Shown here in pieces: positions 484 through 60,123 of a DNA stretch of 64,000 nucleotides (positions are counted from its first letter, which is position 1; each line of letters starts with the position of its first letter). Origin of the DNA: Paraspadella gotoi (Eukaryota > Animalia > Chaetognatha); NCBI GenBank assembly GCA_051294375.1, contig CM119267.1:15602105-15666104 (forward strand). The letters are read 5' to 3'. Made by a program: the position numbers and the translations under genes. The notes under the pieces were generated by a model. The model made no database searches, had not been told where the DNA came from, and saw nothing but the letters and a program-made list of their open reading frames with translations.

Positions 484-627
484 TTTTTATGCCAGTCACC
501 AATATATACTAACAAAATAGAAAAAATTTGGAGAAATATAAAACATTAATCTTTGTATGTATTTAACATTAGTGACTAGATGATCAAAAAAAATAAACGT
601 TGAAAAACCCGAAAAGCGCTAAGAAAA

Positions 628-2726
628 TTAATTCTTCCACTTTATGTTGGGGTTTTTCAGCAGCAGATCTGCATGGATCGCGTTCTCCGGTTTCAGTTTT
701 CTCGCGTAGTCAATGAGGCCGAGCCTGTCCCGTTCCGTGGCGAAGGCGTCGACGGCGGCTAAATGACACCCGATTTTTATCGCCGTCGCCAATCGATCAC
801 CAACGTCATTAACTTCTAACAGGTAGGAGGCAACCATTCGTGACTCGGCACCCTTCAAAGAATATTATCTGGGTATTGATTATTTGATTACAAGGTAAAA
901 ACTAACTTTCTCATTCTAACCTGCTTCGACAAAATGGAGGCAACCGTTTTAAAATCCAAATCGACCTTGCGTTTCTCCTTGCCGAAAAAAGACTTTGTCT
1001 TAAGTAGTTTGTCCACTTCCGTCCAGCGCTTTAGCCGTGCGTGCGCTCGCAGCGCTACCCAAGCGTGTTGTTTCTGAGAGAGGCCGAAAGTCTTCCGCAG
1101 GAACTCAGGGCTGCCGAAGCAGCTGACCGGCTCTCCGTAATGGTAAGTGACGCAGTAGTTGAGTGACGTGAGCAGTGGGAGATCGATGAGGCTTGATGGT
1201 CGGGGAATGCGGGCAAATATTTCCAATTCTGGTGGAAGATTAGGTTCGGGTAAAGGCGGCGAAGATTGTTGCTCAGCCCGGAGTCGCAGCAACGTCTCTT
1301 TGGCCTTGGCGGCGACCTCCGCGTCTGACTGATCGATCGGCTGTTGAACTTCGAGGAGCTGGATTTGTTGCTGAATCAAAGCGGCGTCTTTGGCGAGGAA
1401 GGGGTCGGAAAGATAATGTGCTTGGAGGCAAGACTTTAGAGCACGGACTTTTTGTTGAGGATTCTTCATTTTCGTTGCTTGACCGAACTTTAAGATGGCA
1501 GCTTCCTCGTTGAAGCCGAACATACCGAGGGTCTCGATCAAATCGGATGTTCGAGAAGTTTGCCTCAAGTACTGTCAATAAATAAAAATAAACGTTCTCA
1601 ATTGGGCATTCCCAATAATTTTCTCATTTTCTCTTCGTACCTGCAAATAATGATCTCTCGCCGCGGGACGGGATTGAATCTCGGCCAAAAACAAATTGGT
1701 TTTGACAGTTTTATGAAAGAAAACGACGGCGGCGGTAAGAGCGTCCCCGTCGCCGCAATCGACGGCGGCGTCCAGCAAGGCCAGTTTTTCGTTCAAAGAT
1801 TTGTAGGTCTCAAGGGTATAGACCTGGAATAAGGAATTTGAAAATACGTACTACAGTAAAAAAAAAAAAATCAACAATCTTGCCTGCCCAGTTAACATGC
1901 GCTTGACCGTTTCCTCGACTGGAAGAGACGTCCAACGCGAAGATTCAGCCGCCGCCAATTTGCGTTTGTAAGAATTGAGATCCGACTTTTAAAAAAAATT
2001 AAAGGAGGGAAAAATCAAATTTCACGGAAATGTTATCTGTCGAATTCATTGCCATTTGGTTACCTACCTGCAACTTGGCTCGTTCGGTGGCGTCTCCCAG
2101 CTTTGATTTTGATATATTTTTGGTAGGCTTATCTATAAAGTCTTCCGGTTCTTCCTCCTTTAGTATGGCGCCGGCCAAAGTTTTGGCCAGTTCTTTCATC
2201 TCCTTTTCCTCCTCATATTTTCCTGATCGCCCCAACGAAGAAGTCTTACTGAGAAAAAAAAAAAGGGATTAATTTTCATCGTTTTCGCATGTTTAAAACG
2301 AGATAAACTTGTCTTACTGTTCTGGTTTCTTCTTTTTCTGTTTATCCGAAATCGGATAGCGGTACCGGGCACTCTGCGCGCTTAAAGCGCTCGAAGATAC
2401 CAATTCTCCCGACCAATTTACGACCTCTAAAAAAAATTGTGGTTTGAAAACTAAAAAATAATTCAAAGCATTTTTTTCCTACCGACATCATCATTATCCC
2501 CTTCCGGACCAACGGCGTCGTCTTCTTCGAACAAGTTTTTCCATTTGTTCGAACTAAACCAGAATTCGTCAGTTTCGTCATCGTCGTCGAACAACGGCTT
2601 TTTCATTTCCGGAAATAAAACAATCGGCTCTTCATCGCCAAATAACCGCTTTTCCATTTCCGGAGATAAAATCACCTCTTCGTCTTCGTCATCGAAAAGC
2701 TGATTGCGTCTATCCGCAAATGACAT
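628..2726 (-). CDS. VIPAS39: VPS33B-interacting protein / SPE-39 (VIPAS39, VPS16B), 7 exons
   Basis: Spliced product matches recalled VIPAS39 motifs: YTLETYKSLNEKLALLDAAV..DGDALTAAVVF, PRPSSLIDLPLLTSLNYCVTYHY, FGSPEFLRKTF, and C-terminal IKWKN*. Intron 1824-1883 is GC-AG; the others are GT-AG. Confidence 0.92.
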
Positions 2727-2930
2727 TTTCACTGCAAGTGAACGCTTGATTAAGAGAAAAAAATCTGAAAAATTAAAATTTGGGAATAATACTAATCGTC
2801 GCACATCATCGGAAGTCATCGTACTCGGAACCCGGAATGCGATAATAGGAATATTTCTGGATTCTTAGAGTAGAGAGGATATAAGTTTTAAACTGACTAG
2901 AGTAGGCACTGAGAAGCAATTCACTGAATT

Positions 2931-5900
2931 TTACAGCCGCCTGATCACATTGTTAACGTCCTCAGATCGAAAGTCAGCCCTGAGACCCATTACAACCTTA
3001 ATTTCATGCTTGGACCACCAGCCCCAGGATCCCAAAGCAGCTCCGCCACCTCCCCCCACAATTCCTCGATCTCCGAAGGGATCTCAAGATTGAGGATAGA
3101 CGCCATCTGAGTTAATTTTGTAAACTTGTCCCTGATAGTCCAGCTGGTCGTCGACGAAAGGTATGCCATAAGGCTGCGTAGTTCCTTTCAAATTGAAGGC
3201 CGCCCAGTCGATTGAAGGTCGATTTGGCTATAGCCTTCTCTAAGCGCGCCACGATTTCCGCCGTCAACTGGGCCACCAGCCCGTCGTAGTTGTTGGCTGT
3301 GAGGGCGTCTTTGAAACTAGTCAATAGAGAGTCGAGGCAGACGATAAGCGCCTGCACCCAAGGGTCGTTTGCTTCGTAATTTGCAAACTCTTCTTCGGAA
3401 ATGTCGTGACTGATGGCGGCGAAGTTGTCGACAAAGGGTTTGATTCGAGGTTTGAGCACATTGGCGCGAAGTTGGGCAAGACCTAGGTCAATCAGTTCCT
3501 GGAATCTTTTGGAGACGAGGACAAGATCGGAGATGCCCGATTCGACTTTGGCCAGAGATTGAGGACGCCAGTCACGCGATGAAGCTGTTCGGCGACACTC
3601 GTCCTCGAACGTCTTGCAAAGCGTCTGTACGTATTCCGAGGAGACTTCCGCGTTGTTCAACGAACTGAGGAACAATGCTTTGTCCCTTTCCGAATCCTTG
3701 GCGCTTTGAATTTTGCCCTACGGTGATCGCAAAAACATGAAGATTAGATTAACTCATTAAGTGTTTTTTTTAAACCGCTGAAGCAACTTTTTTACCTGTT
3801 GAAAAGACGACTGCATCAAGCTGTACGCTTGGTTGAAGTCGAGACTTCCCCAGGCCGCGAAACCGGCAGCGTTACTCAATCGGGTCTTTAAGATATCGTG
3901 ATACTCGGAATCGAGAATGGCACTGGTGTGGTTCAACATGGCGCAAGTAACATCCGCGGATCCCGAGGAGAGGGCGCGTCGAAGACATTTTTTGATAATA
4001 AAGAAAACGTCATCGACCTGACAGGTAAAAAAAGTTGTAAAGTTAAAACAAAATAAAAAAATTAAATCCCAAACTTTAAAACGCACCATAGAAGAAGTAG
4101 CTTGTCCGTGCTCTTCATCAATGCTATCAAGAGATTCGGCTTTGGCCACTGAAATACGCATGAAATATTCTTCCATGAGTACATAATGTCCCATTACCTA
4201 AAATAAAAACATTCATAAAAACAATTCGAAAACATTCTTTTTTTAATTAATTAACAGTAATACAACCTAAAATCATTAAAACTATAATGACCCAAGTTAC
4301 CCAACCCTCTATTATTTGAAACAACCTCCTGCATGGTCCGACATAATTCGCTGTTGGAGATTATATCATCCTTGAGAGAGGCCAACTGCCGATCTTGCTC
4401 GTCATCCTCAAAGGATTCTACGTCGGACTGGAGGCGGACTTGAAGAAACCTCCAATACACTTCCGTTCGCGTGTTCAGTAAGATCACTTCACTGAGGAGC
4501 AGATCCAGTTCCTTCGGATCGATACCGTTTTCTAAAAATGTATTTAAAATTATTTACAATGAAACGCCGTTTTTTCGTACCTAGAATCGGTTCCGCACAA
4601 ACTGTGTACTCAATCAAATTTGATAAAATTTGGCATGAAGGTAGACACTGGCTATACAAATGGAACTATCGAGGGGATTTTTGATATTCAACCCCAGAGA
4701 GGAGATACAGGGCCCCGGGATTGTAGCCCTCGGGGACGAAAAAAGCCAAATTTTTTTTTTTAATTTACACGAATTGATAATTAATAAAAAAACATTTTAT
4801 ACATGTAAAATTGATATTTTTGTTAATTTGACGTTTTTTGAAGATGCATGGTTCATCATTTTACTTCAAATTTTCTCATTGTTTATTCCAAATCTAGCTA
4901 TGAACCGCTGATGTTCTATGGACATAAAAATTAAGGTTAACTAAGTTTGTTGGTGACCGATGATGGAAAGAAAAATTGTCGCGGTTAAAAAGTATTTCAA
5001 CATGAATTAATTTATTCAATAAGAAATATACAAAATATAAATAAACATTTTGCATTATTTGGTATGTAAGAGATAACATTGCTTAGAAATAAACTAAATG
5101 AGATTGAGATTTCAATCATCTCATTTGCATATAGTAGTAAATCATTTTAAGTCCAATTGATTTTTGTACTGTAATATTTTAGGCAATATATTTGGATTTT
5201 GATATTACTTTTCTAAATATTGTTTATAGTTTATATTTGGATTCAGTGGATATTTTGTCATGAATTTGATAGATATAGTTATGGTCATTAATGATTGAGA
5301 GTTTATCTCTGTCGCTGGGACGCGTTTTCATAACACATAAATTACTGTTATTATTCAAGAGGTGAAAATGCAATGGTCAGCTTGGATCAAGGGAAGTACT
5401 CTCATGTTAGTAGTCGCACGATACTCTGAAGTCCTTGCTCAATGTATTTAAGTGTTGAATAGTTGTATTAAATAAACATAATAGTTATAATAATAAAAGA
5501 TAAATTAATGTTTCTATTTGTATTTAAGTTATTTAGCTAATTGTAATAAAATCTCAGGTAAACTAGAAGAGGCAGCGCGGCACTAGATCACTGAAGATAT
5601 AAGTAACAAATAATATTTAATTCATAGCCTGAGTCCCAACTCCTATAGTGGTTGGCATCGGGTTGTGGAAAGATAACGATCCTCAGGGAAGCCCGCGCAT
5701 TATATTTAATATTTTAGCTCTAAAAATATAAATATTTTATATTATTTTTTATTCTATTTGCGGCGGCAACACTATCAGAGTCTCATCTTGTTGACAATGC
5801 CATTTCATACCGTTCTCGCCGGTTTATGACAGCAAAGTTCCATGGAGAAATGGGAGAGGCTTGAGTTTTTGCAAAGCTTCAACTCAACTGAAGTGTCAAT

Positions 5901-8900: not shown

Positions 8901-11900
8901 ATGGCTGTCAAATATCGAGGACGTTATCATTCCCATAGTGCCGCAGGGAATTATTTTATCTTTCTCACCTTTTTATATATATTATTATATATTTAGAAAT
9001 ATTTATTTATGTATTTATTATATATCTTTATATGTGTAATATTGGAGTTTAGTCTCAAGATGAATATATTTGCCTTGGTGTTTGTGGTCAGCATACTTAA
9101 TCTTATTTTGAACGCCTGTGAATAATTTGGAGTTTGTCTCATGAATATCCTTTATTTGCCTTGGTGTTTGTGTTCAGCATACACTCTTATTGTGGACGGC
9201 GAGTGAACATAATTGGGAAAAGCTATTTATATTATTTGCTTCTGGACGAATTTTCCATTGATGTACCAAGATCGTTATGTCAACAACTGATCATCCTACT
9301 TCCATATCTAACTCAATCTGCATAACGAATGGAGGTACGATCCACAGTTTTAGGTAACTACTTTTGCAACATTTTGTAGAATTTTATAATAGACTTTTGA
9401 ATAACTTTTTACGCAATATCTTAGTCTCTGATTTTGCGAACCATGAATGGGGTAATTTGGGCAAAAAGAGGACGTTTTGTTTTTTTGAATGGTTGTGAAC
9501 GCAATGTAGAGATACATTCTTAGAATAATACTAATGAAGATTGAGATTTCTCAATCTCATTTGCATATAGTAGTAAGTCATTTTAAAGTGCCAATTGATT
9601 TTTTGTACTGTAAGATATTTTTTAGCATATATTTGGATTTTATATTTACTTTTCTAATTTGTTTAGTAGTTTAATTGATTTCATGGATAATTTTTGTCAA
9701 ATGATTTTGATAGATTAGTTATGTCATTAATGATTGAGGTTTATCTCTGTCTGGCTGACCTTTTTCATAAGACATAATAGCTTTATAATTCAATGAGGTG
9801 AAATCAATTGGTCAGGCTTGGATCAAGGGAATGTACTCTCATGGTTAGAGTCCATCATGCTTCTGAAGTCTTGCTCAATGTTTAAAGGTGTGAATTAGTT
9901 GTATTAAAAATAAACCAATAATTAAAAAATAAATAATAAAAGGATTAAATTGATTGGGGGGTTCTTTCTAATTTTGTGTATTTAGTTATTTAGGGCTATG
10001 TAAATAAATCTCAGGTAACTAGAAAAGGCAGCGCGAGGCACTATCACTGAAAGATATAAGTAACAAATAATATTTTAATTCAATAACCTGAGTCCCACTC
10101 ATATAGGTATACCCTTTGTCGGCATCGACTACTGCTTGCATTAGTCTGGGTATGCTCTTATACGGCAAATTGAGGCATGACAGCGAAATGTTTTTCAACA
10201 TCTTACGCAATTTTTTTAAGTCTAATGTTAATATATGCGCATCTTTCCTCTTTTTGGAGAGCTATAATAACACTTTTTTGAACCTGAAAAAGGTGCAAGG
10301 CGTTTAGCATTGCCATTAAAAAAAATTAAATACAATTTTTTTCACTATTTTTTATTTAAAGTAACAATATTTTTTTGACTGTAACTGTCAAGAAAAAACT
10401 ACTGAAAAAAATTCAATGTAAATTTAGAAAATATTCTGATTTTTTTTAAATCAAATAAGTTTTTGAATAAATATCTGTTATAAAAATGTGATTTACTTTT
10501 TTTCTAGATAGTATTTGAAAAATTCAAAAATATTTTTGAGCATTTTTCTCCCTTGTGGGTGACCCCCCTGGGGGCCCATATCTCGGCTCAGGGGTCAAAT
10601 ATTAAAATTCGCTTCGACAGTTCTATTTGCATTCCCCTAATGATCATATATACAAAATTTAAACATACAGATCTGCTCAAAAAAAGTTTAAACTTTGAAC
10701 CCCCTACTATCTCGCTTGTCTGTCGTACTATTAATTAAAAATAGGGTTCATTTGAAAGCCAAGACAAATATCTTTCATCCGAGCCCATGACGAGGTTTTT
10801 AGGCTAAATATTATAGAAGCTGTGCTAAAATTAAAAAAAGGATCCAAATTTTGTCTTAAAATTTTTTTTATCCATCTTTGTTTTTTGTTTTTTTGTGTTT
10901 TTTTACCATGGAAACTTCAAAACAGCTGATCCCCAAAAGAAAAGCTGCAATAGTTGAGCTTTGGAAGGGGGTTTGTCAAGATATAAGATCGCCAGAGTTT
11001 TATTTCCCTCTAACAACCATCTGCAGAGTTGTTAACAAATTTGAAGCAACTGGACACTTAGGACGAGCTGTTGGAAGCAGGCGGCCTCGCATGTCCACGG
11101 AGAGTGAGAATGATAACGTGGATAGTCTCGCAATTCAAGATTGTAAGGCTTCTGCAAGCCAGTTGAGAAAAAAATGGAGATAAGAGGAAGTGTTGCCAGT
11201 CGTTCAATAGTGAATGGGCGGGTTTTCATCGAGGATTGAGCTCTTAGATACAAAACTAAAACCACTCAAAAATGTCATGAGGAAAATGGGATCGAGGTGC
11301 TCAAAGTTGGCCCAGAAACTTACCTGACTGCAACTTCATCGAAAATGATTGGTCAAGGATGAAATGGGATATTTTGCAGTATAACGCCATGACAATCAAC
11401 AAAATCTAAAAAATTTTAAAATGAATTTGGGGAGTTGAACCCTTCATATTTGTGCAGCCCCTAAAACTCTCTCCCTCATTGCAGGGAGGTGGTGTAGAGA
11501 TATGTCCCCCTTTTTCCCCCATTTATTTGTTTGCCTTTTGTTATTACCGTTTCTGCCGATAGATGCCTCTTTTCTTTTCTTTAGGAGATTACACTCCTCT
11601 TTTCTTTTCTTACCAGATATACTAGGCCCATGTAGATTCTTAGGACTTTTCCGCCCGTCACCAAACTGCCTTTTTCGAGGCTACTAGGACGCCCTCATGT
11701 CACCATCCGTCACCTTTGATCACGGCCATAGAGCCCACGACGAGACCACACTCCAAGAGACTTGTGGACGCACTTGTGGTCAGACTTTAGGCTCCGTCAC
11801 AGACTCGTGGACGGACTCGTGGCCCATTACATTCGGCCACACGTGGGTGACGATAGCCTCGCCGATTACTCCTTCTTCACGGCGAGCCGACGTTTTCGGC

Positions 11901-14900
11901 GCACGCGCAACAGCGCTGGACGCGGCCACGCCCACTTCCGGAGACGTCAGCGAGGGACGTGGAGGACGGCGGTCCTCCGTAACAGCACGACGGCGTCGAT
12001 GCAGAGGCGGCTACACGAGCACACGGCAAGTGTTCGTACAGGTGGTGCTGGAAGCACAGTGGTCTGATAACGTATTATCTGAATCCTAAAAAGTACTATT
12101 TTCCTTCAAATAACAAAATAAAATGCTTTTATCATAACTATTAAACTTTTTTTTAGCAGATCTGTATTTGGTCCAATAGTTATTCCGGAACCGATTCTTG
12201 ACTGAAAAAACGGCGTGAAGAAACAGTAATTATTGTTATGAGTTAATGACAGAACCGTTCGATATAAGCATTAAGCAGTCCCTGAGATTCAGATCAGGCT
12301 GTAACAGTGTAACACCGTGTTACAGGCGGGTTAAGCGCCCCGTCCCTCTTAACTGCTAGGCGACCACCGGGCTAGAACCCTGGTCCTTTGGGTTGGGAGG
12401 CGAATGACTTGCCTCCGGTACCAATGGCCGCTGATGAAAGGTTGGTAGATTTTAGTCCACCCTCGGCGTATCATTTTCTAATATGAAGACTTCTGTAATA
12501 GTTTTATCGGGCTTACGAGTGACGATGAAAAGCGACCATCAAATTTGAGATAAAACTTCTCTCACCAGCCGAACTAAAGTTCTTAGTCAGTAGCGCAGAT
12601 TGGGCTTGTCTCGCTTTGGCCAAATAACATCTTCCGGACTTGAACTTGTCCAGGATCTTTCGGGACTGCCGGTCACATTCGGCTTGGAGCAGGCGAAGAA
12701 GAACGAGAATCTTGCCAGGACCATAGTATGTTTCCAGAAGCGGCTGGCGGGCTTCTACAGCCTGAGCGATGGACTCGAAGAGAAGAGTCAACAAATCGGC
12801 GTACACCACGTGACTGCGATTCGTAATCTGTATTATTAAATTATATTTAATTATTTATGTTTGCTGGTTTTTCTTTCTTTTCGTTGGTAGTTTAAATTAG
12901 CAGAAAAATTTTTTGATTATCACAACGAAATTTATTATTATTCAAAAAGTACTTCTGTTCTTCATCAGTATTTTGTGAAATACAAATTGGTTTAGTTCAA
13001 AAATTGAGTGAGGGAGGGAGAGACAGAGAGAAATCAATGCTTCCAACATAGATTTGAGGAAAATTTCAGTTAGATGGTGAGGACAGCTTAAGTTTGAGAG
13101 ACAGAGGTGAAAGGAAATAAAAGGTCAAACAAAGAGAATAACAAATATAGTGGCACACATCAACACAATTAGATTAAATCTAACCCTCCCCAAACAGAAA
13201 AGTAAAACGAAAACAAACGATAACAATAATGATACTCTATGAGAGTATTCCAAAATTATTGTACAAATAAATTAGTACATTATTTTCTGTTAACACTAAT
13301 CTCTTTATAAATCGTTCATGACTGCTTTGAAATTTACACGTCTCTCTCTCTCTGATTATTGTATTTAATTTGTTTCAATATAAAATATAATTTTATTTAA
13401 TAAATATGACAAAAATATCAGGATTATTATAAAATAATTATCGATTTTTAAAGATCTTGATGATGAGAAGCTATATGTAAATTTTCAACTTCATACACGG
13501 ATTTCAAACTTTGCACCCTGACGTTTTTTATTTTTTAACTCCCAGTAGTCCAGCTAACTTAGTTTCTGTGCTCATTAATGCCATGGTTGAATTTCAAAGA
13601 AGCAATTTTTTTTTTCATTTGAATAGCACCTTACTGTTGTAAGATATATCTTTATGAAAAAAAAATTTTTTTTTAAAAATTGAGTTTATCTTACAAATAT
13701 AGTATGTGTAGGAGCAATCAGAATGTCAAAAAATTTTTCACAGCCACAATGACAGCCCTTTCCTTTTGATAGTTTTTATAGTTAAAACTTATAGAAAATA
13801 AAAATTGGAAAAGAGCATTGATCTGGCAAGCGCCTGTTACCTCACTAAACCTTAAAATATATTAATGAAATTTTTTTTGCATTCTCCCAAGACATTTTAC
13901 TAAATAATGAATGTAAAAGAAATTATAATATTCGTCTCATTTTTTTTCACAATGAGTTTGAAATTGAATTATCAAATAAGAGGTGAAAAATTATGCAAAA
14001 AATGCTGCTGGAAAGCAAGCGAACCAGTTGTTATGAAGTATTCTCAATTTGTTATATACTGGGTTGGCAAAAACCTGGGTTTTTTTTTGGTTTTTTTGGT
14101 TTTTTTGGTTTTTTTTGGGTTTTATTGGGTTTTTTTGGTTTTTTTAAATTATAGATAGCAGACTGTCAATATATTATTTTCCCGCATTCTCGTTAATTTA
14201 CTCCTGGTTAGGATACCTTTTCAGAGAATTCTTTAACATGTGACAAATAGTCAAATGTATAATTATATTGAAGTTTAATTTTTTCTGATAAATCGCTTTA
14301 AGAAAAGGGTATTCAATTCAACTTCAAAATAGGCCAAAATGGAGTACAAATTCAGAAAGCTGAGCTCCTGGCGATTCTGAAAATGTATTCACTTTAAACA
14401 TTTGATGCATTCTACCCTATTTTATATCGGTTTTAATTATAATATAAAATAAAAGAAACCTATCTGAAGAGTTGCAGGTCAAACGAAAGGCCAATCCATC
14501 TGATATTTTTTATGAATTTTTTATTACTGAATTAGAAAAATGTAATAGAGAGACATTTTTAAATTTCAACCCTGAATTCTTTCTAACTGGAACGCGTTTA
14601 TCAAAATGTCTCTCTATTACATTTTTACAAATGTTTTTAAGATTGCTAATCAAATTTTTAATTCAATATATATTGCAGTCGTTTAGGCTGCAACTCTTCA
14701 AATTCAGTGTAGATTCTTATTGTAGCTCGAAGTTCTTTACCATCTATTTAACTGAAGATTTTGTTCATGACTGCGAAAACCAACAGAGTAACGAGATTAA
14801 TTGTTTAATTCTCCCCTTCTAAACTAACCCATACCGTGTTTTTAACTTCTTACCTAGAATTTTTTAACAAACAGAATGAAAAACAATCTTTAAAAAATGT

Positions 14901-16653: not shown

Positions 16654-16822
16654 GGTTTGATTTACGTAGGTTTTTTGTGGATAAATTTTGATTAACAAAC
16701 CCTTTTAAATTTCATCTAAATCCAGATGCAAAAAAGAAAATACTTATTTAACGCTCTTATTTCTTAAAATTTGAAATACAACTCGAAAATGTGGGCTTGA
16801 TGACGCCAAGGACGCAACGAAT

Positions 16823-17311
16823 CTAGCTGTTGGAGTTGGGACCCTTCTTCCGACCGAAGGTGGCGACGACGTTGACGAAACGGCGATTGTACTGAATCCT
16901 TCTTCTCGCACGGCCAGTCTTCTTTTTTTTCTTCTCTTGCTTTTCTACTTTGGTCGTTTGACCTTTAACCTTTCCGGCGCGTGCCAAAGAGCCGTGGACT
17001 TTTCCACCCAGTAGTCGACTCGTCATTTCGACAGTGGACATCTGGTTGCAGAGATATAAAGAAATATTCGTCAAAAATTTAAATTCGACGAAAAAATAGT
17101 TTCAGAAACAGCGAAAAATTACCTCGACCAATCCACAAGACGAGAGGAGCTCATCCTCCAGCAATGGTGTTCCATTGTAGGAGAGAATCTGAGTCTCCGC
17201 ATCTTCGATGTTCTCCAAAAGGCAAGCCTGCTTTTTCAACGATTCGACCGACTCGCAGCCGGAGACATTGACGGTGTGCACCGAAAAGAAGCCGCGCACA
17301 AAGAGCTGCAT
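16823..17311 (-). CDS. FAU: FAU ubiquitin-like (FUBI)-40S ribosomal protein eS30 fusion, 2 exons
   Basis: MQLFVRG...RLLGG followed by [43 protein letters not shown]...KGPNSNS; GT-AG intron about 17042-17122. Confidence 0.97.
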
Positions 17312-30240: not shown

Positions 30241-30262
30241 ATAAAAGAAGAATACAAATGAG

Positions 30263-44307: not shown

Positions 44308-44381
44308 TTTTAAGTTTTTTTCTTTTTTGTTAATTAAAAAAAATTAAAATTAAATTAAAAAAAAGACATTAAATTCAATAA

Positions 44382-45319: not shown

Positions 45320-45503
45320 CAAACGGACTAGTAAAGACAATTTAAATTATGAACAGGAATAAAAGGACAATTTCAAAGCAAATTCAATTCAATAAACCGG
45401 TATGACTGATTGGAATGATTGACATCATTTATCGTTAATTGACAAGCTTCGAAAAAAAAGCTCTTCACAAAAGGTTCGGAGGACTCGGTCATCAGAGTCT
45501 TCA

Positions 45504-47087
<1,584 letters not shown>

Positions 47088-47379
47088 TCACTGCATCAGG
47101 AAGCAGAAAAATTAAGCATGCATTAAAAAGTAATTATTCATTCAGGAAGCAATTCAAACATTCAAAAATCGAAGTAATTCGCAATACTTCTTTAAAATAA
47201 TAAAAAGAAACGTGTTTTGGTGTAAGTAAAAATGAATGAATAAATAAATATGATAGGCAAGCCAAAAAAAAAAAAAAAAACTACGCGAGTATGAGTTAAA
47301 AAGAAAAACTTGCACAAAAAACGCACGAAAAATCTAATCAAGACTATTGCACAAATATTATAAAGTCATAAATATATCG

Positions 47380-48615
47380 TCATGAGTGAAATCTCTTGAG
47401 GTGGGTATTTAAGTGGGAAGACTGGGGAAAAGATTTGGAACAATGATGGCATTTAAATGGTTTCTCGCCAGTGTGGGTTCTCATATGGGCGTTAAGATGA
47501 CCGGACTGAGAAAACGTTTTCGTGCAAAATTTACATTTGAACGGCTTCTCCCCGGTGTGAACGCGGATATGAGTGCTCAGGTAGGACGAAAGCAAAAACA
47601 TTTTGGGGCATTTCGGGCACTGAAATGTTTTTTCGCCCGTGTGTGTCCGCATGTGCGCGTTGAGGTGCCCCGACTGGGTGTAGGTTTTGAAGCAATGCGG
47701 GCACTTGAAGGGACGTTCTCCGGTGTGTACACGACTATGCGTCAGGAGATGACCCGCCTGCGAAAAGGACTTTGGACACTTCTCGCAATGAAAAGATCGC
47801 TCTCCGGTGTGCACACGGGTGTGAATAGATAGATGTGCGGCCGACGTGAAAGGCTTTTCGCAGGTTTTGCAGAGAAAAGGTTTGTCAGGATCCGAACCAG
47901 GAATGTACTCCACCGATTTAGTTCGACCGCGCTGTTGCAGCTGATGTTGTTGAAGTTGACGCGATCGGCGTTGTTCTTGCGGGGTAGCCGAGTCGGTGGT
48001 GTCTTCGTTGAAAACGCCGCTGTCGTTTAAATCTCGATTACTGGGGGCGCCGCCGACGCCGCTTCCACTGCCCGCCCCTTCGGATTTGATGGACATCGGT
48101 TCCATCTCGAAATTAAAATCGTCGCTGGGATGCTCGTCGTCTTCTTCCTCATTTCGAGGGAAGTCCAGTGATTTAACTCGAATCTCCTTGTCGACGTCCG
48201 AGTGCGACCTTCGAGACGGGGGTTGAGACGGCGGCTGAATTTGATTATGAGGATGAGGAGGAAGCGGAGGAGGTGGAGGGAAAGGATGCTGCGGATAATG
48301 AGGCTGAGGAATATGGGGCGATGGATGCGGCGGTTGCTGCAAATGGAGTTGTTGTTGCATTTGTTGCTGGGTTGGCGGCGGCGGATGCGGAGGCGGCGGC
48401 GTTACGTCATTCTCGAGTTGGAAGAGAACATCGTCAACACCGATCTTGATGTGTTTGGCCATGAGCTCGTGCTTTAAGCCCTCTTCGCTGGCGCACCATA
48501 TTCGACGGCCGCTACGAGTCTGGATGCCAACAATGACATCCACGGAAATAGTGGCCGCCAACGAGAGCGTCTCTTTGAAGACAGACGCGTACGACAAATA
48601 TTCGGACTGGTCCAT
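47380..48615 (-). CDS. C2H2 zinc-finger protein: 6 tandem fingers, Pro/His/Gln-rich linker, compact N-terminal domain; intronless
   Basis: Six CxxC-x12-H-x3/4-H fingers with TGE(K/R)x linkers. Likely start AAAAATG at 48615 (MDQSEY), after acceptor TTTTTTTGATACAG; the longer ORF-track start overlaps CABLES. Confidence 0.9.
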   Translation of the reverse strand: MDQSEYLSYASVFKETLSLAATISVDVIVGIQTRSGRRIWCASEEGLKHELMAKHIKIGVDDVLFQLENDVTPPPPHPPPPTQQQMQQQLHLQQPPHPSPHIPQPHYPQHPFPPPPPLPPHPHNQIQPPSQPPSRRSHSDVDKEIRVKSLDFPRNEEEDDEHPSDDFNFEMEPMSIKSEGAGSGSGVGGAPSNRDLNDSGVFNEDTTDSATPQEQRRSRQLQQHQLQQRGRTKSVEYIPGSDPDKPFLCKTCEKPFTSAAHLSIHTRVHTGERSFHCEKCPKSFSQAGHLLTHSRVHTGERPFKCPHCFKTYTQSGHLNAHMRTHTGEKTFQCPKCPKMFLLSSYLSTHIRVHTGEKPFKCKFCTKTFSQSGHLNAHMRTHTGEKPFKCHHCSKSFPQSSHLNTHLKRFHS

Positions 48616-48660
48616 TTTTGCACTTGCAGATCTTTCCTGGCCAAACCCAATCTCTGCTAT

Positions 48661-48685
48661 CTGTATCAAAAAAAAGTCAACGTTC
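48661..48685 (-). promoter_or_regulatory. Putative trans-splice acceptor upstream of the zinc-finger gene
   Basis: Minus strand TTGACTTTTTTTTGATACAG, 45 nt before the ATG, within the 221-nt spacer after the CABLES stop. Confidence 0.6.
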
Positions 48686-48836
48686 ATATCGCGAAAAGCG
48701 AAAAAATTAGGACAATAAATTAAGTAGTCTGGTAAGAATAATATTAATAATGCCTTCGGACAAACATAGTAAATACAGCTTGGATTAGGAAAGGCCCATA
48801 GGTAATTATAATATGAGTTATAAGTAATTGTCCATA

Positions 48837-51800
48837 TCACATTTCGTTGAGAAGTCTCTGGTGATGCGGGCGGATCTCGTGGTCGGGGAGTTGTAAAGAA
48901 AATTCGAGAGCGACGAGTACAACCATTTCCCAGCACATGAGCTCCTTGCGCTGAACGCGGAAAACGTCCTCCACTTCGTCTAGAACGTGCTTCAACTCAG
49001 GGCCTTTGAAGTCATCAAATTTGGCGGCGAGAACCAAGCAGTTAGCGGCGAGAATCTTGCGATTTTGCTTGGTTATTAAACCCTGTGAGAAAAAGTTAAA
49101 TATTTCTGCTCACTTTCCTCAGTTTCTGCACGAGTCCTGTACTTTATTACTAAATCCGACCTTAATATCCAAAATATTTGAATTTTACTCAATTGTTTGC
49201 GTGGATTTTTTAATAAATGGAATAATACCATATTAAATAGGTCTAGCAATATTTCGGTCATTTCTTACGTACCTTGAGGATAATCTTTTCGAAATAAACG
49301 TAAGAAGCGGCTAGAGTGGCGAGTTCGAGTTGCGCCTTATTCGCTATTCGGTGCAGATCTCGTTTGATGCTGCGCAACTTGGAGAGCGTCAATTGGATGG
49401 AGGGAAAGCGTTCCTGGGAAGAAGAATTTAAAGAATTTTTCTCCGAATTCAAATCTCGCATTATTGGCACTGGACTATGGGCTGCCCGCTCACCTTGAAT
49501 TGATCGTTCAATTCCGTCTTGAGATCCGAGGGGCGGACGTAGTCGATGATCGACGTCATGTAGGACGGAAAAGTGAGCAGCGTTCGGTGTTTTCCGGCGC
49601 GAAGCTCCGGATCGTCGAGGCGAAGCGGGTCGTAGGGAATGTAAATGCGGGCGAGCGGGTGCGACAGAGCCGACGATGGAGTCGCCGACCCGTCGGTGAG
49701 CGAAAGAACCGGAGTCAAAGGTGGAACGTCCAAATTGGAGCTCAGTTCTGAATCCGTGAGAGAAGAGAAGCGAATGGTCGGAGTCATTTTACTTTTAAAG
49801 TTTTATCGCACAGTTTTCCGAATGGTTTACCTGTGAGGAGGCGTTTTCCTCTGGCTCGATACGGATAAAGCAGAGGAGCGAAAGACACTTCTTGGCCCTC
49901 CTCCCTCTTCTCCACGCCAAGTAGATCCTGTAGGAAATGAGGGCAAGTTAGTAGTGTATGAAAAAAAATGATCAGAGTTATCCCAATTTTAATTATCACT
50001 TGAATCAGAGAATCCAAAGCTTGACCGGCGGCGTTCCGAGGACCCGAGGGAATTCTTTGCCGCGAACCGTCGGCAGCGATGGCCTCGGTTTTTGAAACAA
50101 CTTGGTGCAGCTGAGAATGAGAAGAGGAGGTCGCGTGGCCGAGATCATTCAGGGTCGAGGCGGTCGTCGAATCCAGGCCGGAGATTGAGTTCGATTTGGG
50201 AACCTTTGCCGTTTAAATTTTTTTTCGAAAGTTAAAAGCAATTCTCATTTTACTTTAAATATAATTTAAGTTATTTTTTTATTTATTTAAGTTATATTTA
50301 AAATTATGAATTAACCTCTGAATACGGAAGCGTCGAGCAGACGACGAAGGGAGCGGCGCATTTTCCCGTGACGAATACCATCCTCTTGTCAGTGGCCTTT
50401 TTAAGCGCGTGAAAGCCTTCGGGGGTTTTTACTCGAAGTACGCGGAACTTGGGCCGCATGGCTTCGTGACTGTTGTCTCGCGGAATTACTGTTTCGAATT
50501 AATAAGGGACGCTCGTTAGTATTTTAAAAAAAAATATTTATAAATAACGAAAAATATGAATTTAGTTTACCCCCGGTCTCCGAATAAAATTCGTTGACAG
50601 AGGACGAGGATTTCCGCGAAGATTTCCCTCCCAGCAGAAGGGCTTGGGTCGTGGTTGGGGCGTGTTGTAGGGAGTGCTGGGAAGACGAAACGGCGGAGAG
50701 ACCCATCGATTCCACGCTATCTTCGGCGGGACGATGATCCGCAAACAACTTCCTCTTGTGCGAAGCGTAGCCTTGGATTCGATTCGATAAGCATTCGCTG
50801 TGACCTTAAAATATATAGTAGATTCACAATAAAAATTGCATAACTTGATCTATTTGTAATTGACTATGATTTATATTAAGACCAAAAAAACGTAAGATCT
50901 TTAATCACCATACTAAAATTTGTAAGTCGTTTAATTAAATAAAATCCACCAACCGTTCATCAGCGGCCATTGATGCAGGAGGCAAGTCATTCGCCTGACA
51001 ACCCCAAGCTCCGGGGTTCTAGCCCGGTGGTCGCCTCGCAGTTAAGAGGGACGGGGCGCTTAACCCGCCTGTAACACGGTGTTAAAGCCTGATCCGGTTC
51101 TGTCACTAACTCATAACAATTATTACTGTCTCATCAATACAATTAATAAATGAAACGAAAGGTAATCTTGACAAGTGACTACAAATAAAAACTTATACTA
51201 AATACTATTTTCGAAATATTCCTGGCTACTCTAGAGATCGTATAAATTGGCTATTCCGAAATGGTTACAGTTATAAATCGAGCAACCGTTTTAATTGAGT
51301 TGGACAATATTAAAACGTAGGCATTACGTATTTCATTCTATTCACCTAAGCTAACAGTCCGTAGCCGGCGTTTGGACAAAACGTTAGTCAAACAAGGATT
51401 TGCGTGCATGTGAGAGGCATCGCCTGAGACGTGCAGGAAAGGATCGGGAAGATTTGTTAGTGATATTAAGCTACAAATACTTATCGTAACAAACAAAATT
51501 ATGCTTTTTAATGACTCATTAAAAAATGATTAAACTACATGTACAACTAGATAATTAAATATTAATAAACAAAATTGAAAACGAACATATTAATACGAGT
51601 ACGACGAGCTGAATGATAATTTAAAAAAAATATTAAGTTAATTAACCCACTCAGGTTTTTACCCTCGGAACTGGAAGAGGCCAAACGTTCGACGACGTAA
51701 GCGCGGATTTCAGGACCTGCACTCGCGCCATCGACCGCGTCCTCGTTGTCAGGAGGAACGGGTTCAGTACTAGAGTCAGCCTCTATTCTCTGCCTCTCAC

Positions 51801-52052
51801 TCGTCGCCTGAGGCTGAAACATCCACAGTTTCGTGTCTCTGGAAAAATAAATTGGGAATGAAGAACGAATTTTAAAAAATTTCGGACAAGGTGGGAGTGT
51901 GAAACAAAAAAGGGGAAAGAGAGGTTTCATGTAAAAAAAGAGTTAAGCATAAACCTGTGGGTTCCATCCAGCGAGATGTTTGACAAAAAATTTACGGCGG
52001 CGATTCGGCGGCGGCATCGCTGACGTTGCGCACGGCACGTTCGACTCGTCAT
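48837..52052 (-). CDS. CABLES1: CDK5 and ABL1 enzyme substrate (CABLES1/2-like), 9 exons
   Basis: [22 protein letters not shown]; [65 protein letters not shown]; cyclin-like AYVYFEK-type segment; [12 protein letters not shown]. Confidence 0.93.
50940..51129 (+). mobile_element. tRNA-derived SINE, copy 2 (CABLES intron 2)
   Basis: Collinear with the reverse complement of 12223-12454 apart from internal deletions. tRNA-like head at 50963-51034; shared body gcagttaagagggacggggcgcttaacccgcctgtaacacggtgtta. Confidence 0.8.
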
Positions 52053-52422
52053 CGTGGTTCAACGTTTCGCTCGAATGAAAAACCAAGACGATGCGCCATT
52101 ACCCATTACCCGTTATCTATTCAAGTTAATTGGCTCATCTGGGAGAGGACAAGTTCTACGAAAGTTCTATAGGAATGCATTGTGCAAAACAGCTTTCTGA
52201 TAGTCTGTAAAAAGAACAAAAAAACCAGCAAAAGTAAGCTTTATTATGCCTTGTTGGTACATCAAAAAGTCATGTACCTTAAAAACCGGAATGAGTAATA
52301 ATATTATCAAAACCAAATTAGGATGAGAACCAACTACTTGGAGAGTAAATATCACAATTCACAAATATTGTAAAATTCGTAGTGGGCAAGGAATCACATG
52401 TAGCGGTAAAAGATTCTTGGCA

Positions 52423-53864
52423 TCAAAGATCTTCCTTGACACGTACTACTTTAGGTTCGTTGAGCCAAGTTCCATTTTTATCAATGTCCAAATCTGCCCT
52501 AAATCTGATTTCTTTTGGAGCATTGGGATTGCGTCGGACGTGTTTTGGAAAACCCTGCGGGTAGCCGAGTGTTAAAGCAGGTAGAAAATTAGAAATGGGC
52601 AGCAAAACGTTTTTCTCAATCGGGTTAGATCAATGAGCTTACCCAAAATTCTAAAGATTTTCCAAAAATCTTTCTGTGACGAAATGCGTAACCCGAGAAC
52701 GTAGATACGCAGTTACCAATCCAATGAGACGCCATTTCCATCACGCAAAGGTCAACCTTAAAATCGGAATCCGGCCCAGGAGCGTAAATCTTTAAATCCT
52801 TAAACTTTTTCTTAAATTCCCTGACCATTGGGTCATTGTCAGTAGAAATGTAGATGGACCTAATTTTGTGCTTTTTCACTGCGGCTGCCACTTGCTTAAT
52901 GATCGTATTTTTTGACGGGAAACAAATTTCCTAGAAAAAAGTGAAAATTCTAAGTGGTTTAATTTTTATGAAATAAACTAAATTGCAATCGAGATGAACA
53001 TTACGAAAAAAAAAATTTCACCTGCGTCAAGAATCCCTTCTCATTCTCGAAGCCCAAACACTGGGCGGAGCCGAAAAAATTTCTTCCTTCTTCCACGTGA
53101 TTGCAGGCGCGTTTGAAGTCGTCTCCATTCCTCAAGTGAATTGCCAAGAAGGGATTTTCCATCTCCTTCCGAATGAGTATCTCGGATCGCTTCCAAACAT
53201 CGTCCGACCAGAGCAAATACTTTTGATTTTCGATGTCGGCCTCTTTGGGTGGAAAGTCGCCCGGCGTGCCAGTAAAGGCCAGGACAGGAAATTTTTCCGG
53301 TGGATATTCTTGGTGCCACCGTTCTATCATGTGCGTGTCGTTGACATTACAGTAATAAAGTCCTTTTTCGCCGTAGAAGGAGGAGGAATCGAAATCGATG
53401 CCGAAGTGATCCCAATATGGTCCGAAAGGGTTCCCGTCCTTTGCGTTGCAGCCCTTATCGACAGAGCCGTGACGTGGCCCGTAGCATATAGAAATTCGCT
53501 CGCCTTTGGGAAACACGTCGTCGCCAACAGTGCCCATAAAAAAGTCCATGGTTATCGAGCGGTGAAACATGGTGGCGGCTCTGTAGCGGAAATAATCTTC
53601 GTAGGGTATCTGGCGAGATCCAGCTTGGTATGGAATGTATTCAATCCAGTGCGGGAGGATAAGGGTTCGATCGAGAGCCTTGGCGAAACTCATGGCACCC
53701 AAAAACTGGGCTACTTGATTTCCGAAACGGCCCATGCAAGGGCAAAACATGATGTATCCCTTGGGGTCAACCTCAAACCCCAAGTTCTGTGTTGGCTTCT
53801 TTTTGTGCGCCATCGCAGAATGAAGGAAGAGCACGAGGACGAATAAACGTTTAATTGGATTCAT
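52423..53864 (-). CDS. POFUT1: GDP-fucose protein O-fucosyltransferase 1, 3 exons
   Basis: Signal peptide; DPKGYIMFCPCMGRFGNQ, CNAKDGNPFGPYWDHF, AIHLRNGDDF..AC, IGNCVSTFS; C-terminal ER-retention-like KEDL*. Confidence 0.96.
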
Positions 53865-53871
53865 TTTTAAT

Positions 53872-53895
53872 CTATAAATAAAAAAACGCTTTCTT
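53872..53895 (-). promoter_or_regulatory. Putative trans-splice acceptor upstream of POFUT1
   Basis: Minus strand GCGTTTTTTTATTTATAG|ATTAAAAATG; two AATAAA signals of ZC3H14 lie about 120-140 nt upstream. Confidence 0.6.
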
Positions 53896-54030
53896 TGAAC
53901 AAGGCGAAGATTTATCAGAACATTAACTGTCCGTTAGGTAATTTACAAATCAAAATCATACATGCATTTAATAATTACTAATTAGTAAAAGTTTATTGAA
54001 ATTTTTTTTATTTGATGACAAACTAAAAAA

Positions 54031-57000: not shown

Positions 57001-57630
57001 CGTCTGGCGCTTGGTCGAAGACGTCGACGCTGTCTTTAACAACTTCTTGGGCATTTCGATTTTTTCGTTGGAATCGCGCTTTTTACGGAGAGCGTCGTCC
57101 AGCGCCTGTCGTGCTTGCACTAGTGACGGAGGTTCTTTAAGGGATAACTCTGACTTTTTCTTGACGGCTTCCTTGGCAACGCCACCTTTTGGAGGGGCAT
57201 CGTCGTTGAGACCCTCAATTACATCGTCCGTGCGGATGGAGATGAAATCGCCAAGAGGAAGTTGCTGCGCAGAAGACGGATCTAAATTTTTTTGTTCCGT
57301 CTTTTTGTCTAGTGTCAATAGCACTTTAGTCGAGTGGCTGCTCTGCCCGGTCTTCTCCGCTTTTTGCTGAGCCTTCAATTGTCGCTCTAACGTTTCGGCC
57401 GTTATGTTCTGCAATTTGTTTAAAAGTTGCTGGAGCCAGTCGGTGAAGGCAGCTGCGGCGGCGCCGAGGAAGAGGCTGAGATCGCCCTGCATCTGATCTC
57501 TCGTTTTCTTATTGGCCACCATGACCATGATATAGTCCGGAAGCTCCTCATCAACGTACGCCCCTAGTTCCTCCAATTTTGTCTTAATGGCGGCACGAAT
57601 CTTTTTGCTGATCTCAGTACCAATCTCCAT
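54031..57630 (-). CDS. ZC3H14: Zinc finger CCCH domain protein 14 (Nab2 orthologue, poly(A)-binding), intronless
   Basis: PWI-like MEIGTEISKKIRAAIKTKLEELGAYVDEELPDYIMVMVANKK; SPKFIVTLDGV; four C-terminal CCCH fingers (CRFWPAC, CKAFPRC, CKYDAQC, CRYGNAC). Confidence 0.95.
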   Translation of the reverse strand: MEIGTEISKKIRAAIKTKLEELGAYVDEELPDYIMVMVANKKTRDQMQGDLSLFLGAAAAAFTDWLQQLLNKLQNITAETLERQLKAQQKAEKTGQSSHSTKVLLTLDKKTEQKNLDPSSAQQLPLGDFISIRTDDVIEGLNDDAPPKGGVAKEAVKKKSELSLKEPPSLVQARQALDDALRKKRDSNEKIEMPKKLLKTASTSSTKRQTRDDKAKVTKSRVSTGGVLKERDVDEQGRIIGSIVKVTDKKGKSLVQSKSVSTHSQISKSLSSSSRTMSKEKISKSSSNRQCGFTLGGMRSDEIMSIPGSNSYVEKSRRSREDDREDDRSHNHSRLESAAHRCHRPNITSAERSRADEALMDLAHNDGRHDAQSIRPSLPRDSKSDFHSDSRAISPEIRRESRMYSDRREHSARSRQEIPNETRQLPASEARYAFAGDGALRRDKSSDVSHPRTQTTPSPSHRSRESRKRDSNEDSRSKDRRRHRSGGGSSRRESVESDDAIVLKKDNGKTVKVTRAHLQSFKVHIKNRVHKASESSSVAVDDYALAEDFSDDGSGGETAVTKKDGPSIPASPESYIDDDYDQPFVDNRLRAGSRVSDHPMESEDESRSQFRQEVHRIQSIRNVRPKSPTPVERESRSRSRSGDSIEQSNENNCGQVDERRFQANVEDKPADYDSEEEMLYGKESSEMVEMAEKPRQSSIDIEPAPPGTEEPIVLPHEKGIKGEEIEENKEEESGKFQKSSSENGQTEPNWRDIVAAALKVDNEEVKSKTKAEAKIRSEKRERVKPRLKRPPPPHGLSDGSPPRKSAPPPVQPSSTHGALISSPREQCGASSSQRESPKFIVTLDGVDASKFADKKTRANSNDHEGLKRRLYDEEVTLDGSADDDVFLYINEEDVEDCPPHDSLKISFATEGESSAPTSKPSVSPDISMINRNSSKTTSNISLPVRFSSTSNNSSDSVPKFSPSNAPPPLDFKFQAKATASVAPQRTAPSQFSWQNPRATIGAGASSNSTVESTASLANITHALAGIRKSASTIRRALPPTSDGPEVPHSSGERCRFWPACRAGESCPFQHPTTPCKAFPRCRFGDKCLFIHPNCKYDAQCTKLSCPYTHASKRGNLFARPPIKKFAPTPPPARSVFLATPGPESTETMPCRYGNACAKRECQFSHPDNRDRGQSIRPDMSTEMAEKILNFPTKLVWKKN

Positions 57631-57703
57631 GGTCACTTCTTTAGGCGATTATCTTAATAAATAAATCAATAAATAAAATAAAAACAATGTTATTCAACAA
57701 TAT

Positions 57704-59360
57704 TTACGTGTCAGAATCGCTGCAGTCGTACAAGTCCGAAACGAGAGAACTAGCAGTTTGCAAAATTTCAATTTTAGTACTAGAAAAAAAATTATCGACA
57801 CTGTGATCAGAAGCATCGCTGTCCTCATGATGACCACTGATAACAGCTGCCTCCGCTGCACCCGAGCAAGACGGCGACGACTTAAAGGGATTGTGAAGAA
57901 TAACGTTTTGTATATCAGCCCGATCTGCCTCTTTCGGCTCGGAAAGTTTGGTGGTTACTAAGGAAGAATGATAAGAACATTCGTTGGCGTCGATAACGTT
58001 GACTCGTTCTAAATCTGTCTTCACGCTCGTCTCTTCATCAATTTTTTTCTTAACAATCTTTCCGAATCCCGATAGAGCAATGGAGAAAGAAGACTGTAAC
58101 GTGCCGGAGCCTCCAAAGACGCCAGCTTTCGGTCTTTTGGCCGGCGTTTTAGAGGTGGATTCGTCGGGAACGAGGACGGACGATTCTTCGATCGCTTTTC
58201 GCTTCTTGTTTTGACGCTCGTCGAATGTTTCGAGGCTTTTGTATTTAATGAGAGAAGCCAGCCTCTTGTCTTCGTCGGATTCTTCTACGAGGACCAAGTC
58301 TGAGCATGACATTGACAAATTTTATTTTTAATTAAAATTATAATTTTTTCATTAGAGAAAACAGAAAAAAAAAACTACCTTTAGGAAGCGACGATTTTTC
58401 GAGAAGAGCCTCTCCAATCTTTTTCTTTTCCAAAATTTCCTTTTTTTCAAAACGAAATTTTTTTCGCGTCATCTGATTTAAAGCAAAATCATCCAACCAC
58501 TCCTCGCGACTTTCCGCCAACTCGGCCAAACTGGGCATTGACTTCTTCGCCTATAAATATATACTTTATATATACTATTAAAATATAAAACGTTAATTCT
58601 TCTCATAATTAAATTGTACTCACCTTCTCAACGTCTTGTTTTCCGTGCTCCAGCTTAAACATCGGGTCTGACTCGAGCTTTCGGTGCTTCTTCTTCTCCT
58701 CGGGAGCAACCTGTTCGTTTTCATCCGGGTTCCATCGTTGTTCCTTCCGCTTGAGCCCGGATATTATGACGTACTCGAAATTTGCAGGGTCCGTCTGCAT
58801 TTCAAAGTGATTGTCGCAGAGGTGACACTTCATTCTGGAAAAAAAGCTCTTGTTGTAATCATTGCTGGTATCACAGCTGACGTAGACACCGTCCCGGTCA
58901 TTCCTTATTTACAGCGGCACAGTCAATTAGACTTAAAATATCTGTAACCCGATTAATCACAGAAAACCTCTTCGTTCATTCAATTAAGCAGAAATACAAT
59001 AGTTTAATTGCAAGTTTAAAAAATACCTAAACTTATAAATCGGAGTGGTGTAATACATTCCCGTTTTCGTTTTTTCTGCGTTGTACCGAACGCCCATGCC
59101 AATGTGATTTCCACATCCAAGGCACCTAAACAAGCTTAGATTTATTACTGACGCAACAAGTGAAAAACTCCTTCGCAAATTTATTTAAATACGTACCAGA
59201 CATTATACGGCATTTCAAATCTGATGATCAGGATTCCTCGATCAAGTTTTCGCGCTCTTTCCCGCAAGGCGTGCACGCCATGGTATCCGTTCAATGACCC
59301 GTGCTTCTTGGGGTCGAAATCGGGGGGATAATACTTATTGGTTCCTTTTCGTTCTCCCAT
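57704..59360 (-). CDS. YJU2B: Splicing factor CCDC130/YJU2B (CWC16 family), 5 exons
   Basis: MGERKGTNKYYPPDFDPKKHGSLNGYHGVHALRERARKL..IRFEMPYNVWCLGCGNHIGMGVRYNAEK..FRMKCHLC..TDPAN..DPMFKLEH. Confidence 0.95.
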
Positions 59361-60123
59361 GTTTTATGCCAAAGTTATTGCCAATGATAAAATCCTCTAG
59401 AATATGATAAAAACATTTCTTACAGAACACATTAAAGCTTAAGGGGAAGACGGTGGGTGGCATTGCGTTCAGAAGAAAAAGTTCTATCATTGTAAATAAT
59501 CATTAAAAAGTTTACCGAATAGAGATCAATGCTGAATAATACCTAAATAAGTTAGATTAGGTAACGACTGTAATTTTCGCAACGTCGCTCACCACAAGAG
59601 AAATTAATCAAATTTAATGGATAAATGAATTAGAAAAGGGGGAAAAACGCTTAAAATCATGAAAATGTCGAAAAAATTAGGAAATTTTAGAAGCGATCAC
59701 AAAAACTACAAACTACATAAAATCTAATAAGGCACCAATTGTGAAACCACCAATCACAAAAGGAAAACGTCATACAATATATAAATATATATTCGACAGT
59801 TAATTCTAGAAAAAAAGAGTTGACCAGTAAGTCCAGTATCTGAATTCTTCATGACTAGAAGACGTCATATAACATCAAATAAAACCGTTGGTTTAGTAAC
59901 ACTTTTTTATTCTTTCTGCAATAAAAATATTATGACTTGTATGTTTTTAAAAGAGCTTACTTTTTTCAAAAATCTGATCATTTTTAACTTAAGACCTAAC
60001 TTTAAATTGCTACATTCCATTCACTGTTTAATATTTTTTTGACTTTCAACTGGTAGGACTGACAACAACAATAAATACCCATTTAAAAAATCAAATCTAA
60101 CGAGTCTATACCCAAAATTACCA

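Follow-up and report, generated by a model that had tools for sequence, protein, structure and literature searches.

Spliced-leader (SL) trans-splicing, together with a first operon, was described for chaetognaths in 2008 from Spadella cephaloptera and Flaccisagitta enflata, with one two-gene operon validated (PMC2481426). For Paraspadella gotoi, 10,197 of 21,072 genes have been reported as trans-spliced and 18% as in operons, the operon candidates being genes <250 bp apart, of housekeeping content and reportedly served by no operon-specific leader (PMC12460157). Chaetognath leaders are described as products of SL RNA genes at other genomic loci, with several forms used interchangeably. Here we analyzed a stretch of 64,000 nucleotides (nt) of P. 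gotoi (contig CM119267.1, positions 15,602,105 to 15,666,104; hereafter the window), in which all 20 genes are on the minus strand (19 with their start codons, plus one represented by its 3′ part) and in which splice-acceptor AGs stand shortly before start codons. At one of these AGs, 25775–25776 of SPICE1, the end of a leader is joined exactly. We estimate at about 0.85 the probability that the start-site AGs are leader-addition sites of operons, most of the other sites taking the same family of short leaders. The trans-splicing system of this locus is an instance of the one already published for the phylum (2008, 2025), and the length of the transcription unit is its only unusual point.

The junction at SPICE1 was found in the public run X1, which is not on record as RNA and which contained 58% of the words sampled from 44001–54000; two further runs contained next to none of these words. 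The X1 contigs were compared with positions 17262–34700 only, where six of the 14 start-site AGs proposed by a first-pass annotation were covered and the remaining eight were not. Given that the contigs skipped modelled introns (13 of the 20 in 17262–34700, with canonical ends), X1 can be taken as RNA of the same or a very close organism; the exons of the hexosaminidase gene (Hex) also summed to the length of its contig to the letter. Letter 10 of contig 1 (10,441 nt) lay at 25774, immediately downstream of the SPICE1 AG (ATG at 25743; 5.5 bits with an acceptor matrix trained on the 55 cis introns of our gene models), and was preceded by nine loose letters reading TTGTTTAAA on the strand of the gene. 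There were no copies of these letters on the minus strand of the window, within which their non-genomic status was checked, and at intron base composition a particular 9-mer would arise with a probability of 4.6e-5. SPICE1 is the only site at which a leader was seen in RNA.

Four of the 26 leader forms in Table 3 of PMC2481426 (SL1, SL2.0, SL3.2 and SL4.2) were compared with these letters. TTGTTTAAA is exactly the longest 3′ end common to SL2.0, SL3.2 and SL4.2 (9/9 letters), while the five letters TTAAA are the 3′ end common to SL1 and SL2.0 (PMC2481426). Nine letters cannot tell which leader form was added, and the contig lacks the first three quarters of the leader. In an assembly graph, an mRNA bearing several leader forms would be traced only as far as the forms agree, which would leave nine letters at SPICE1 and five at PCCA. 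The first-pass annotation had concluded from the orphan AGs that they were spliced-leader addition sites, and the junction at 25774 together with the match to the 3′ end of published chaetognath leaders bears this out.

At PCCA (AG 30202–30203, ATG at 30171, 3.5 bits; the AG follows the PDRG1 stop codon by 59 nt), contig 2 had 2497 letters down to 25820, compared to an exon sum of 2492 counted from the AG, and thus starts five letters beyond the AG by length arithmetic, the letters themselves not being seen. Leaders were also found on the proteins of near relatives. The FAU protein of the window and 19 marine proteins formed a clade of 20 rows (support of 100 in the Shimodaira–Hasegawa-like approximate likelihood-ratio test, SH-aLRT), which contained all eight leader-bearing rows of a 120-row tree; this tree was a quick version, with 133 columns for 120 rows. 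After one odd fusion match, the best FAU relatives were marine proteins without names. Many had been translated starting at the extreme 5′ terminus of the transcript. Forty-four of 159 sequences were N-terminally extended FAU relatives, six of which read EANFYYFTCLK and 21 FTCLK. The former is SL3.2 in frame 2, plus a K begun by its last two letters, and other extended relatives read pieces of SL2.0 (VSICL) or SL1 (KLKFFY). Similarly, one of the three closest relatives of PDRG1, P0160 (63% identical), starts with the SL3-like EANFYYFTYLK. Because translated leaders precede their Met, the FAU and PDRG1 orthologues of near relatives take chaetognath leaders, and on this evidence, too, a chaetognath is the most likely source of the window. 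From the length arithmetic at PCCA and these orthologues, we infer that PCCA, FAU (AG 17338–17339, ATG at 17311, 3.4 bits) and PDRG1 (AG 30684–30685, ATG at 30679, 1.9 bits) take a leader in this genome as well. FAU exon 1 alone, used as a protein query, gave no match among 50 candidates. A metagenome scan with the N-terminus of a relative's FAU yielded four loci of 235 candidates, all from distant animals (40–54% identity), with no leader-bearing DNA and none of the window's neighbor genes at these loci.

The N-terminal extensions of P0002, P0003, P0008, P0009, P0013, P0014, P0019, P0118 and P0160, and of the members of their clusters, are false, being translated chaetognath leaders, and translated leaders in marine metatranscriptome proteins can be used to recognize transcripts of chaetognaths. 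Two further extensions, EAKNIYFTCLK and EATNIYFTCLK, matched none of the four translated published forms and may be unlisted leader variants.

Judged from sequence alone, the start-site AGs suggest leader addition without proving it. All 14 AGs of the first-pass annotation were indeed on the minus strand at the positions it gave, 4–45 nt before the first ATG and with no intervening ATG. Its wording that nearly every start codon has such a site held for these 14 of 19 start codons; among the five unlisted genes, the AG of ZC3H14 was passable (3.3 bits), that of COG4 weak (1.6 bits), and those of GUF1, CABLES and an open reading frame (ORF) of 2231 amino acids (aa) poor. When passable acceptors were defined as those scoring at or above the 10th percentile of true acceptors and lying ≤50 nt from the ATG, 14 of the 19 start codons had one, compared to 9.5 ± 2.0 in dinucleotide shuffles (45 of 2000 shuffles as high as 14) and 10.3 ± 2.2 in mononucleotide shuffles (131 of 2000). 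The comparison with shuffled spacers that had been proposed as a check therefore favored the sites, by a modest margin. The 14 listed sites had a median of 3.5 bits, above the −0.3 of 804 decoy intronic AGs, a contrast biased by the picking of the sites by eye, and below the 5.4 of the cis acceptors (leave-one-out; p = 0.05). A clearer signal was the AG-free run ahead of the site, which over all 19 genes, unselected, averaged 45 nt vs. 32.4 ± 4.2 nt in shuffles (1 of 5000 as high), and to which a T-rich 3′ untranslated region (UTR) beside an A-rich 5′ UTR could contribute.

These figures bear on the explanation that selection by eye picked out AGs that occur by chance behind T-rich 3′ UTRs. 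About half of ordinary non-coding 49-nt windows (45–55% in intron, spacer and opposite-strand sequences) hold an AG that scores equally well, and the sites are weaker than cis acceptors; for the exact AG at the C2H2 zinc-finger gene (ZnF), POFUT1, LZIC and YJU2B, each with a rival AG of roughly equal score, chance may well be the right explanation. The exact leader junction at the predicted SPICE1 base, the start of the PCCA contig within five letters of its AG and the AG-free runs make it scarcely credible otherwise. Somewhat less remote, and still very improbable, is that the AGs are ordinary cis acceptors of 5′-UTR introns with non-coding first exons upstream. The first-pass annotation had found no matching donor in the shortest spacers; with a threshold of 4.45 bits (10th percentile of true donors), this was true of six of the 14 spacers, whereas eight contained a donor-like GT or GC of 5.2–6.8 bits. 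At the FAU loci L002 and L004 of other animals, too, the ATG is preceded by a pyrimidine tract and an AG, so that the feature alone is not diagnostic, and in individual genes, YJU2B for instance, a 5′-UTR intron may be present. At PCCA, ZC3H14 and the 2231-aa ORF, however, the spacers between stop codon and AG (about 49–61 nt) leave no room for a cis donor, given that the shortest intron is 56 nt. The letters joined to SPICE1 are absent from the minus strand of the window and match the published leader, and none of the 15 joints examined enters any of the six covered start-site AGs. Cis joints to upstream exons, which had been named as evidence that would speak against spliced leaders, were thus not among these 15 joints. 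The seven introns not accounted for above fit six plus two further joint rows, so that no more than one row could represent cis-splicing into a start-site AG.

It is also unlikely, if less so, that the genes are trans-spliced but mostly monocistronic, with their own promoters and short outrons in the spacer or the upstream 3′ end, the bridging contigs reflecting read-through or overlapping UTRs. Most trans-spliced genes of P. gotoi are outside operons (6,457 vs. 3,740; PMC12460157), eight of the 19 spacers exceed 250 nt from stop codon to ATG, assembly contigs can fuse abutting transcripts, and the PCCA and Hex contigs are separate from those of their downstream neighbors. Yet the shortest stop-to-AG spacers, those of ZC3H14, the 2231-aa ORF and PCCA, leave no room for a promoter and must also fit a 3′ UTR; RNA of the upstream gene comes within 28 and 44 nt of the next AG; and all 20 genes are on one strand. 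For individual genes, chiefly CABLES, GUF1 and YJU2B, any of these alternatives may be correct.

Several observations weigh against leader addition in operons. The leader was seen at one of the six covered sites, as nine letters, in a single run that was assigned to RNA by guesswork, although its 13 canonical spliced joints do indicate RNA, and the sample consisted of the 15 joints, six of 29 loose ends and eight of 109 pieces, with PDRG1's own contig not among the eight. Contig 1 crosses the AGs of MROH1 and FAU unspliced, and contig 3 that of Hex. A contig that spans two genes is no proof of one transcript. No named chaetognath protein was among the FAU and PDRG1 matches, so that in these data the chaetognath affinity depends on the leader match. 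In three of the 19 genes, even the best AG ≤50 nt from the ATG scored below 0 bits. Acceptor scores exceeded those of intron and spacer windows only weakly (p 0.06–0.10), and the acceptor score was rejected as stand-alone proof, its signal being close to background. As the first-pass annotation had noted, the window contains no SL RNA gene (Rfam gave 0 matches, and the longest exact leader pieces had 10–13 letters). The 13-letter piece of SL2.0, at about 57412–57424 on the plus strand, is antisense within the ZC3H14 coding region, is followed by no GT and was dismissed as a chance match. The expectation that a constant leader would join exactly at these AGs was confirmed at SPICE1 and not at MROH1, FAU and Hex, where unspliced passage, named beforehand as contrary evidence, is formally present. 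Such passage fits a polycistronic precursor; MROH1, FAU and Hex are, however, not thereby shown to take a leader.

Under leader addition in operons, the run would be transcribed as one or several polycistronic precursors. Cleavage and polyadenylation of the upstream mRNA would take place near the next gene, and a leader from an SL RNA would be joined by the spliceosome to each unpaired AG, cutting the precursor into single mRNAs. The remaining sites would then take leaders too, and the short spacers would be the intercistronic regions of operons. X1 contigs were continuous over three gene junctions (SPICE1-MROH1, MROH1-FAU and GUF1-Hex), and by its length contig 1 would extend through FAU into the last COG4 exon. 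RNA of the upstream gene ended 28 nt short of the next AG between Hex and PDRG1 (at 30713) and 44 nt short between PCCA and SPICE1. Contig 1 lacked 45 nt between MROH1 and FAU (17471–17515), with non-canonical ends (AA..AT), which is likely an allele difference and not splicing.

The spacers of the co-oriented run (1–64000, minus strand) measured, from stop codon to ATG, 763, 73, 166, 370, 221, 349, 184, 74, 381, 141, 302, 326, 91, 306, 125, 409, 169, 204 and 144 nt; 11 of the 19 were <250 nt and 18 were ≤409 nt, with 763 nt as the sole outlier. By the <250-nt rule alone the longest run has four genes (FAU to the RS-rich ORF). A larger candidate, of 37 kb (1–37241, minus strand), consists of PEX2, GUF1, Hex, PDRG1, PCCA, SPICE1, MROH1, FAU, COG4, the VIPAS39-like gene and the RS-rich ORF. 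Six of its ten junctions are <250 nt (141, 91, 125, 169, 204 and 144 nt), GUF1-Hex and MROH1-FAU, as well as SPICE1-MROH1, are bridged by contigs, and Hex-PDRG1 and PCCA-SPICE1 are nearly reached by upstream RNA. We propose only tentatively that these 11 genes form one operon; that all of the 64 kb, with its 20 or more genes, is one polycistronic unit, with cis introns of up to 8 kb inside, appears doubtful. The longest published P. gotoi operon has nine genes, compared to the 11 of this candidate within its run of 20, and the 11-gene cluster may already be in Supplementary Table 1 of the same study (PMC12460157). No other report of SL operons longer than nine genes was found in open-access text. 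When 3′ UTRs are taken into account, operons of chaetognaths may be longer than the nine genes published so far. A single 20-gene unit, if true, would be more than twice the chaetognath record and nearer to a directional gene cluster of kinetoplastid style than to known animal operons, and would offer a case in which to test how closely an animal can approach promoter-poor, kinetoplastid-like expression. The mechanism is already known, and the value of these results is practical in that they assign a genome to a trans-splicing phylum from its sequence and a single junction, and supply exact candidate acceptor sites.

The acceptors of this locus have loose pyrimidine tracts with T/CAG, unlike the strict nematode form, UUUUCAG, and tunicate leaders differ in sequence from the chaetognath leader. 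The likeness to Spadella and Flaccisagitta is close: the nine letters at SPICE1 are the 3′ end of SL2, SL3 and SL4, the leader ends in AAA, and ribosomal-protein genes are trans-spliced (PMC2481426). The distance from the upstream 3′ end to the acceptor is likewise very short, with 3 nt in Spadella (RPS14-PCNA; PMC2481426) and 28 and 44 nt here, the latter two being upper bounds taken from contig ends. The operons of the tunicates Ciona and Oikopleura are resolved by one unspecialized leader, which, as reported for chaetognaths, is not specific to operon position, and a short intercistronic distance serves as the criterion (cut-offs of 84 and 60 bp; PMC7986045); introns and spacers are longer here. 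In Caenorhabditis elegans, the downstream genes of SL1/SL2 operons likewise start with an unpaired acceptor, which lies some 100 bp beyond the 3′ end of the preceding gene, and they use a dedicated SL2 (PMC7986045); such a leader has been reported as absent in chaetognaths (PMC12460157).

The remaining start-site AGs, all on the minus strand, differ widely in score. In the stretch covered by RNA, that of MROH1 (23087–23088, ATG at 23078) has 3.1 bits and lies 115 nt after the SPICE1 stop codon, with a best spacer donor of 1.5 bits, and that of Hex (33084–33085, ATG at 33060) has 6.8 bits. Outside that stretch, the highest scores were those of the RS-rich ORF (509–510, ATG at 483; 7.3 bits) and the VIPAS39-like gene (2765–2766, ATG at 2726; 6.9 bits), followed by PEX2 (37240–37241, ATG at 37230; 4.5 bits, best donor 3.3 bits), the UCH (Peptidase_C12) gene (45328–45329, ATG at 45319; 4.4 bits) and the LZIC-like gene (47059–47060, ATG at 47030; 3.4 bits). 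The AG of ZnF (48661–48662, ATG at 48615; 3.5 bits) has rivals at 48657 and 48637 with 3.2 bits, and that of POFUT1 (53872–53873, ATG at 53864; 3.3 bits) has one at 53893 with 4.9 bits. The AG of YJU2B (59397–59398, ATG at 59360; 2.4 bits) follows the 763-nt spacer, and YJU2B is possibly the first gene of a unit.

Further candidates, missed by the first-pass annotation or weaker, are those of ZC3H14 (57653–57654, ATG at 57630), 49 nt after the YJU2B stop codon, and of COG4 (16702–16703, ATG at 16653). The poor candidate of the 2231-aa ORF (44322–44323, ATG at 44307; −3.2 bits) is the sole AG in the last 50 nt of a 74-nt spacer and follows a long T-rich AG-free run. The GUF1 candidate (36327–36328, ATG at 36291; −0.3 bits) lies 39 nt after an AATAAA, and CABLES (52070–52071, ATG at 52052; −2.0 bits) may not be trans-spliced at its site.

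The 19 gene models were built from coordinates and are open from ATG to stop codon, with GT-AG or GC-AG introns, except that the last COG4 exon has two frame breaks and the RS-rich ORF runs past the window edge. Their 55 cis introns range from 56 to 8034 nt (median 91). The first-pass annotation had pointed out that intronless genes also have start-site acceptors, and this holds for PEX2, PDRG1 and ZnF. Pfam backs the names of PEX2, ZC3H14 (Nab2-type finger), the C2H2 finger, MROH, SPICE, COG4, O-FucT, the cyclin-fold CABLES, UCH, the GTPase GUF1, hexosaminidase, YJU2, PCCA and the ubiquitin-like FAU. The FAU label further has a PDB match, and the PDRG1 label comes from named protein matches. 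The names VIPAS39-like, LZIC-like and RS ORF are those of the first-pass annotation and are unconfirmed; the largest VIPAS39-like exon had no Pfam or PDB match and the RS ORF no Pfam match. AATAAA or ATTAAA was present in just seven of the 19 spacers, and poly(A) sites could therefore not be located. The twentieth gene is RRM-like and ends at 60124. The AG at 63960–63961 (minus strand), 30 nt before an ATG at 63929, is either a further start-site acceptor of this gene or an ordinary intron end, and adjoins the window edge.

Some features of single genes were also noted. The reading frame of the last COG4 exon (3718–2931, minus strand) shifts twice, at short runs of G near 3187 and near 3055, which likely reflects assembly indels; its open reading ends early, at 3112, the second frame having been read by eye. 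Two COG4 introns on the minus strand, of 8.0 kb (12565–4532) and 3.0 kb (15815–12828), stand out in an otherwise compact run and contain a 630-nt repeat pair (5064–5648 and 9504–10106, 80%) and short plus-strand ORFs without Pfam matches. An element of 145 nt, 92% identical and in opposite orientations in a COG4 intron (12310–12454) and a CABLES intron (51084–50940), is probably a small mobile repeat. Two of the 55 introns are GC-AG, namely PCCA intron 1 (29857–29770, minus strand), which was confirmed by an RNA joint, and VIPAS39-like intron 4 (1883–1824, minus strand), which was modelled. The 2231-aa ORF (44307–37612, minus strand) is intronless, lies 74 nt behind UCH and has no Pfam match; its first 500 aa are weakly like EF-hand proteins (score 0.89), and its GC content is far below that of its neighbors along most of its length. 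The third exon of POFUT1 (52555–52423, minus strand) encodes a C-terminal KEDL, which resembles a signal for retention in the endoplasmic reticulum.

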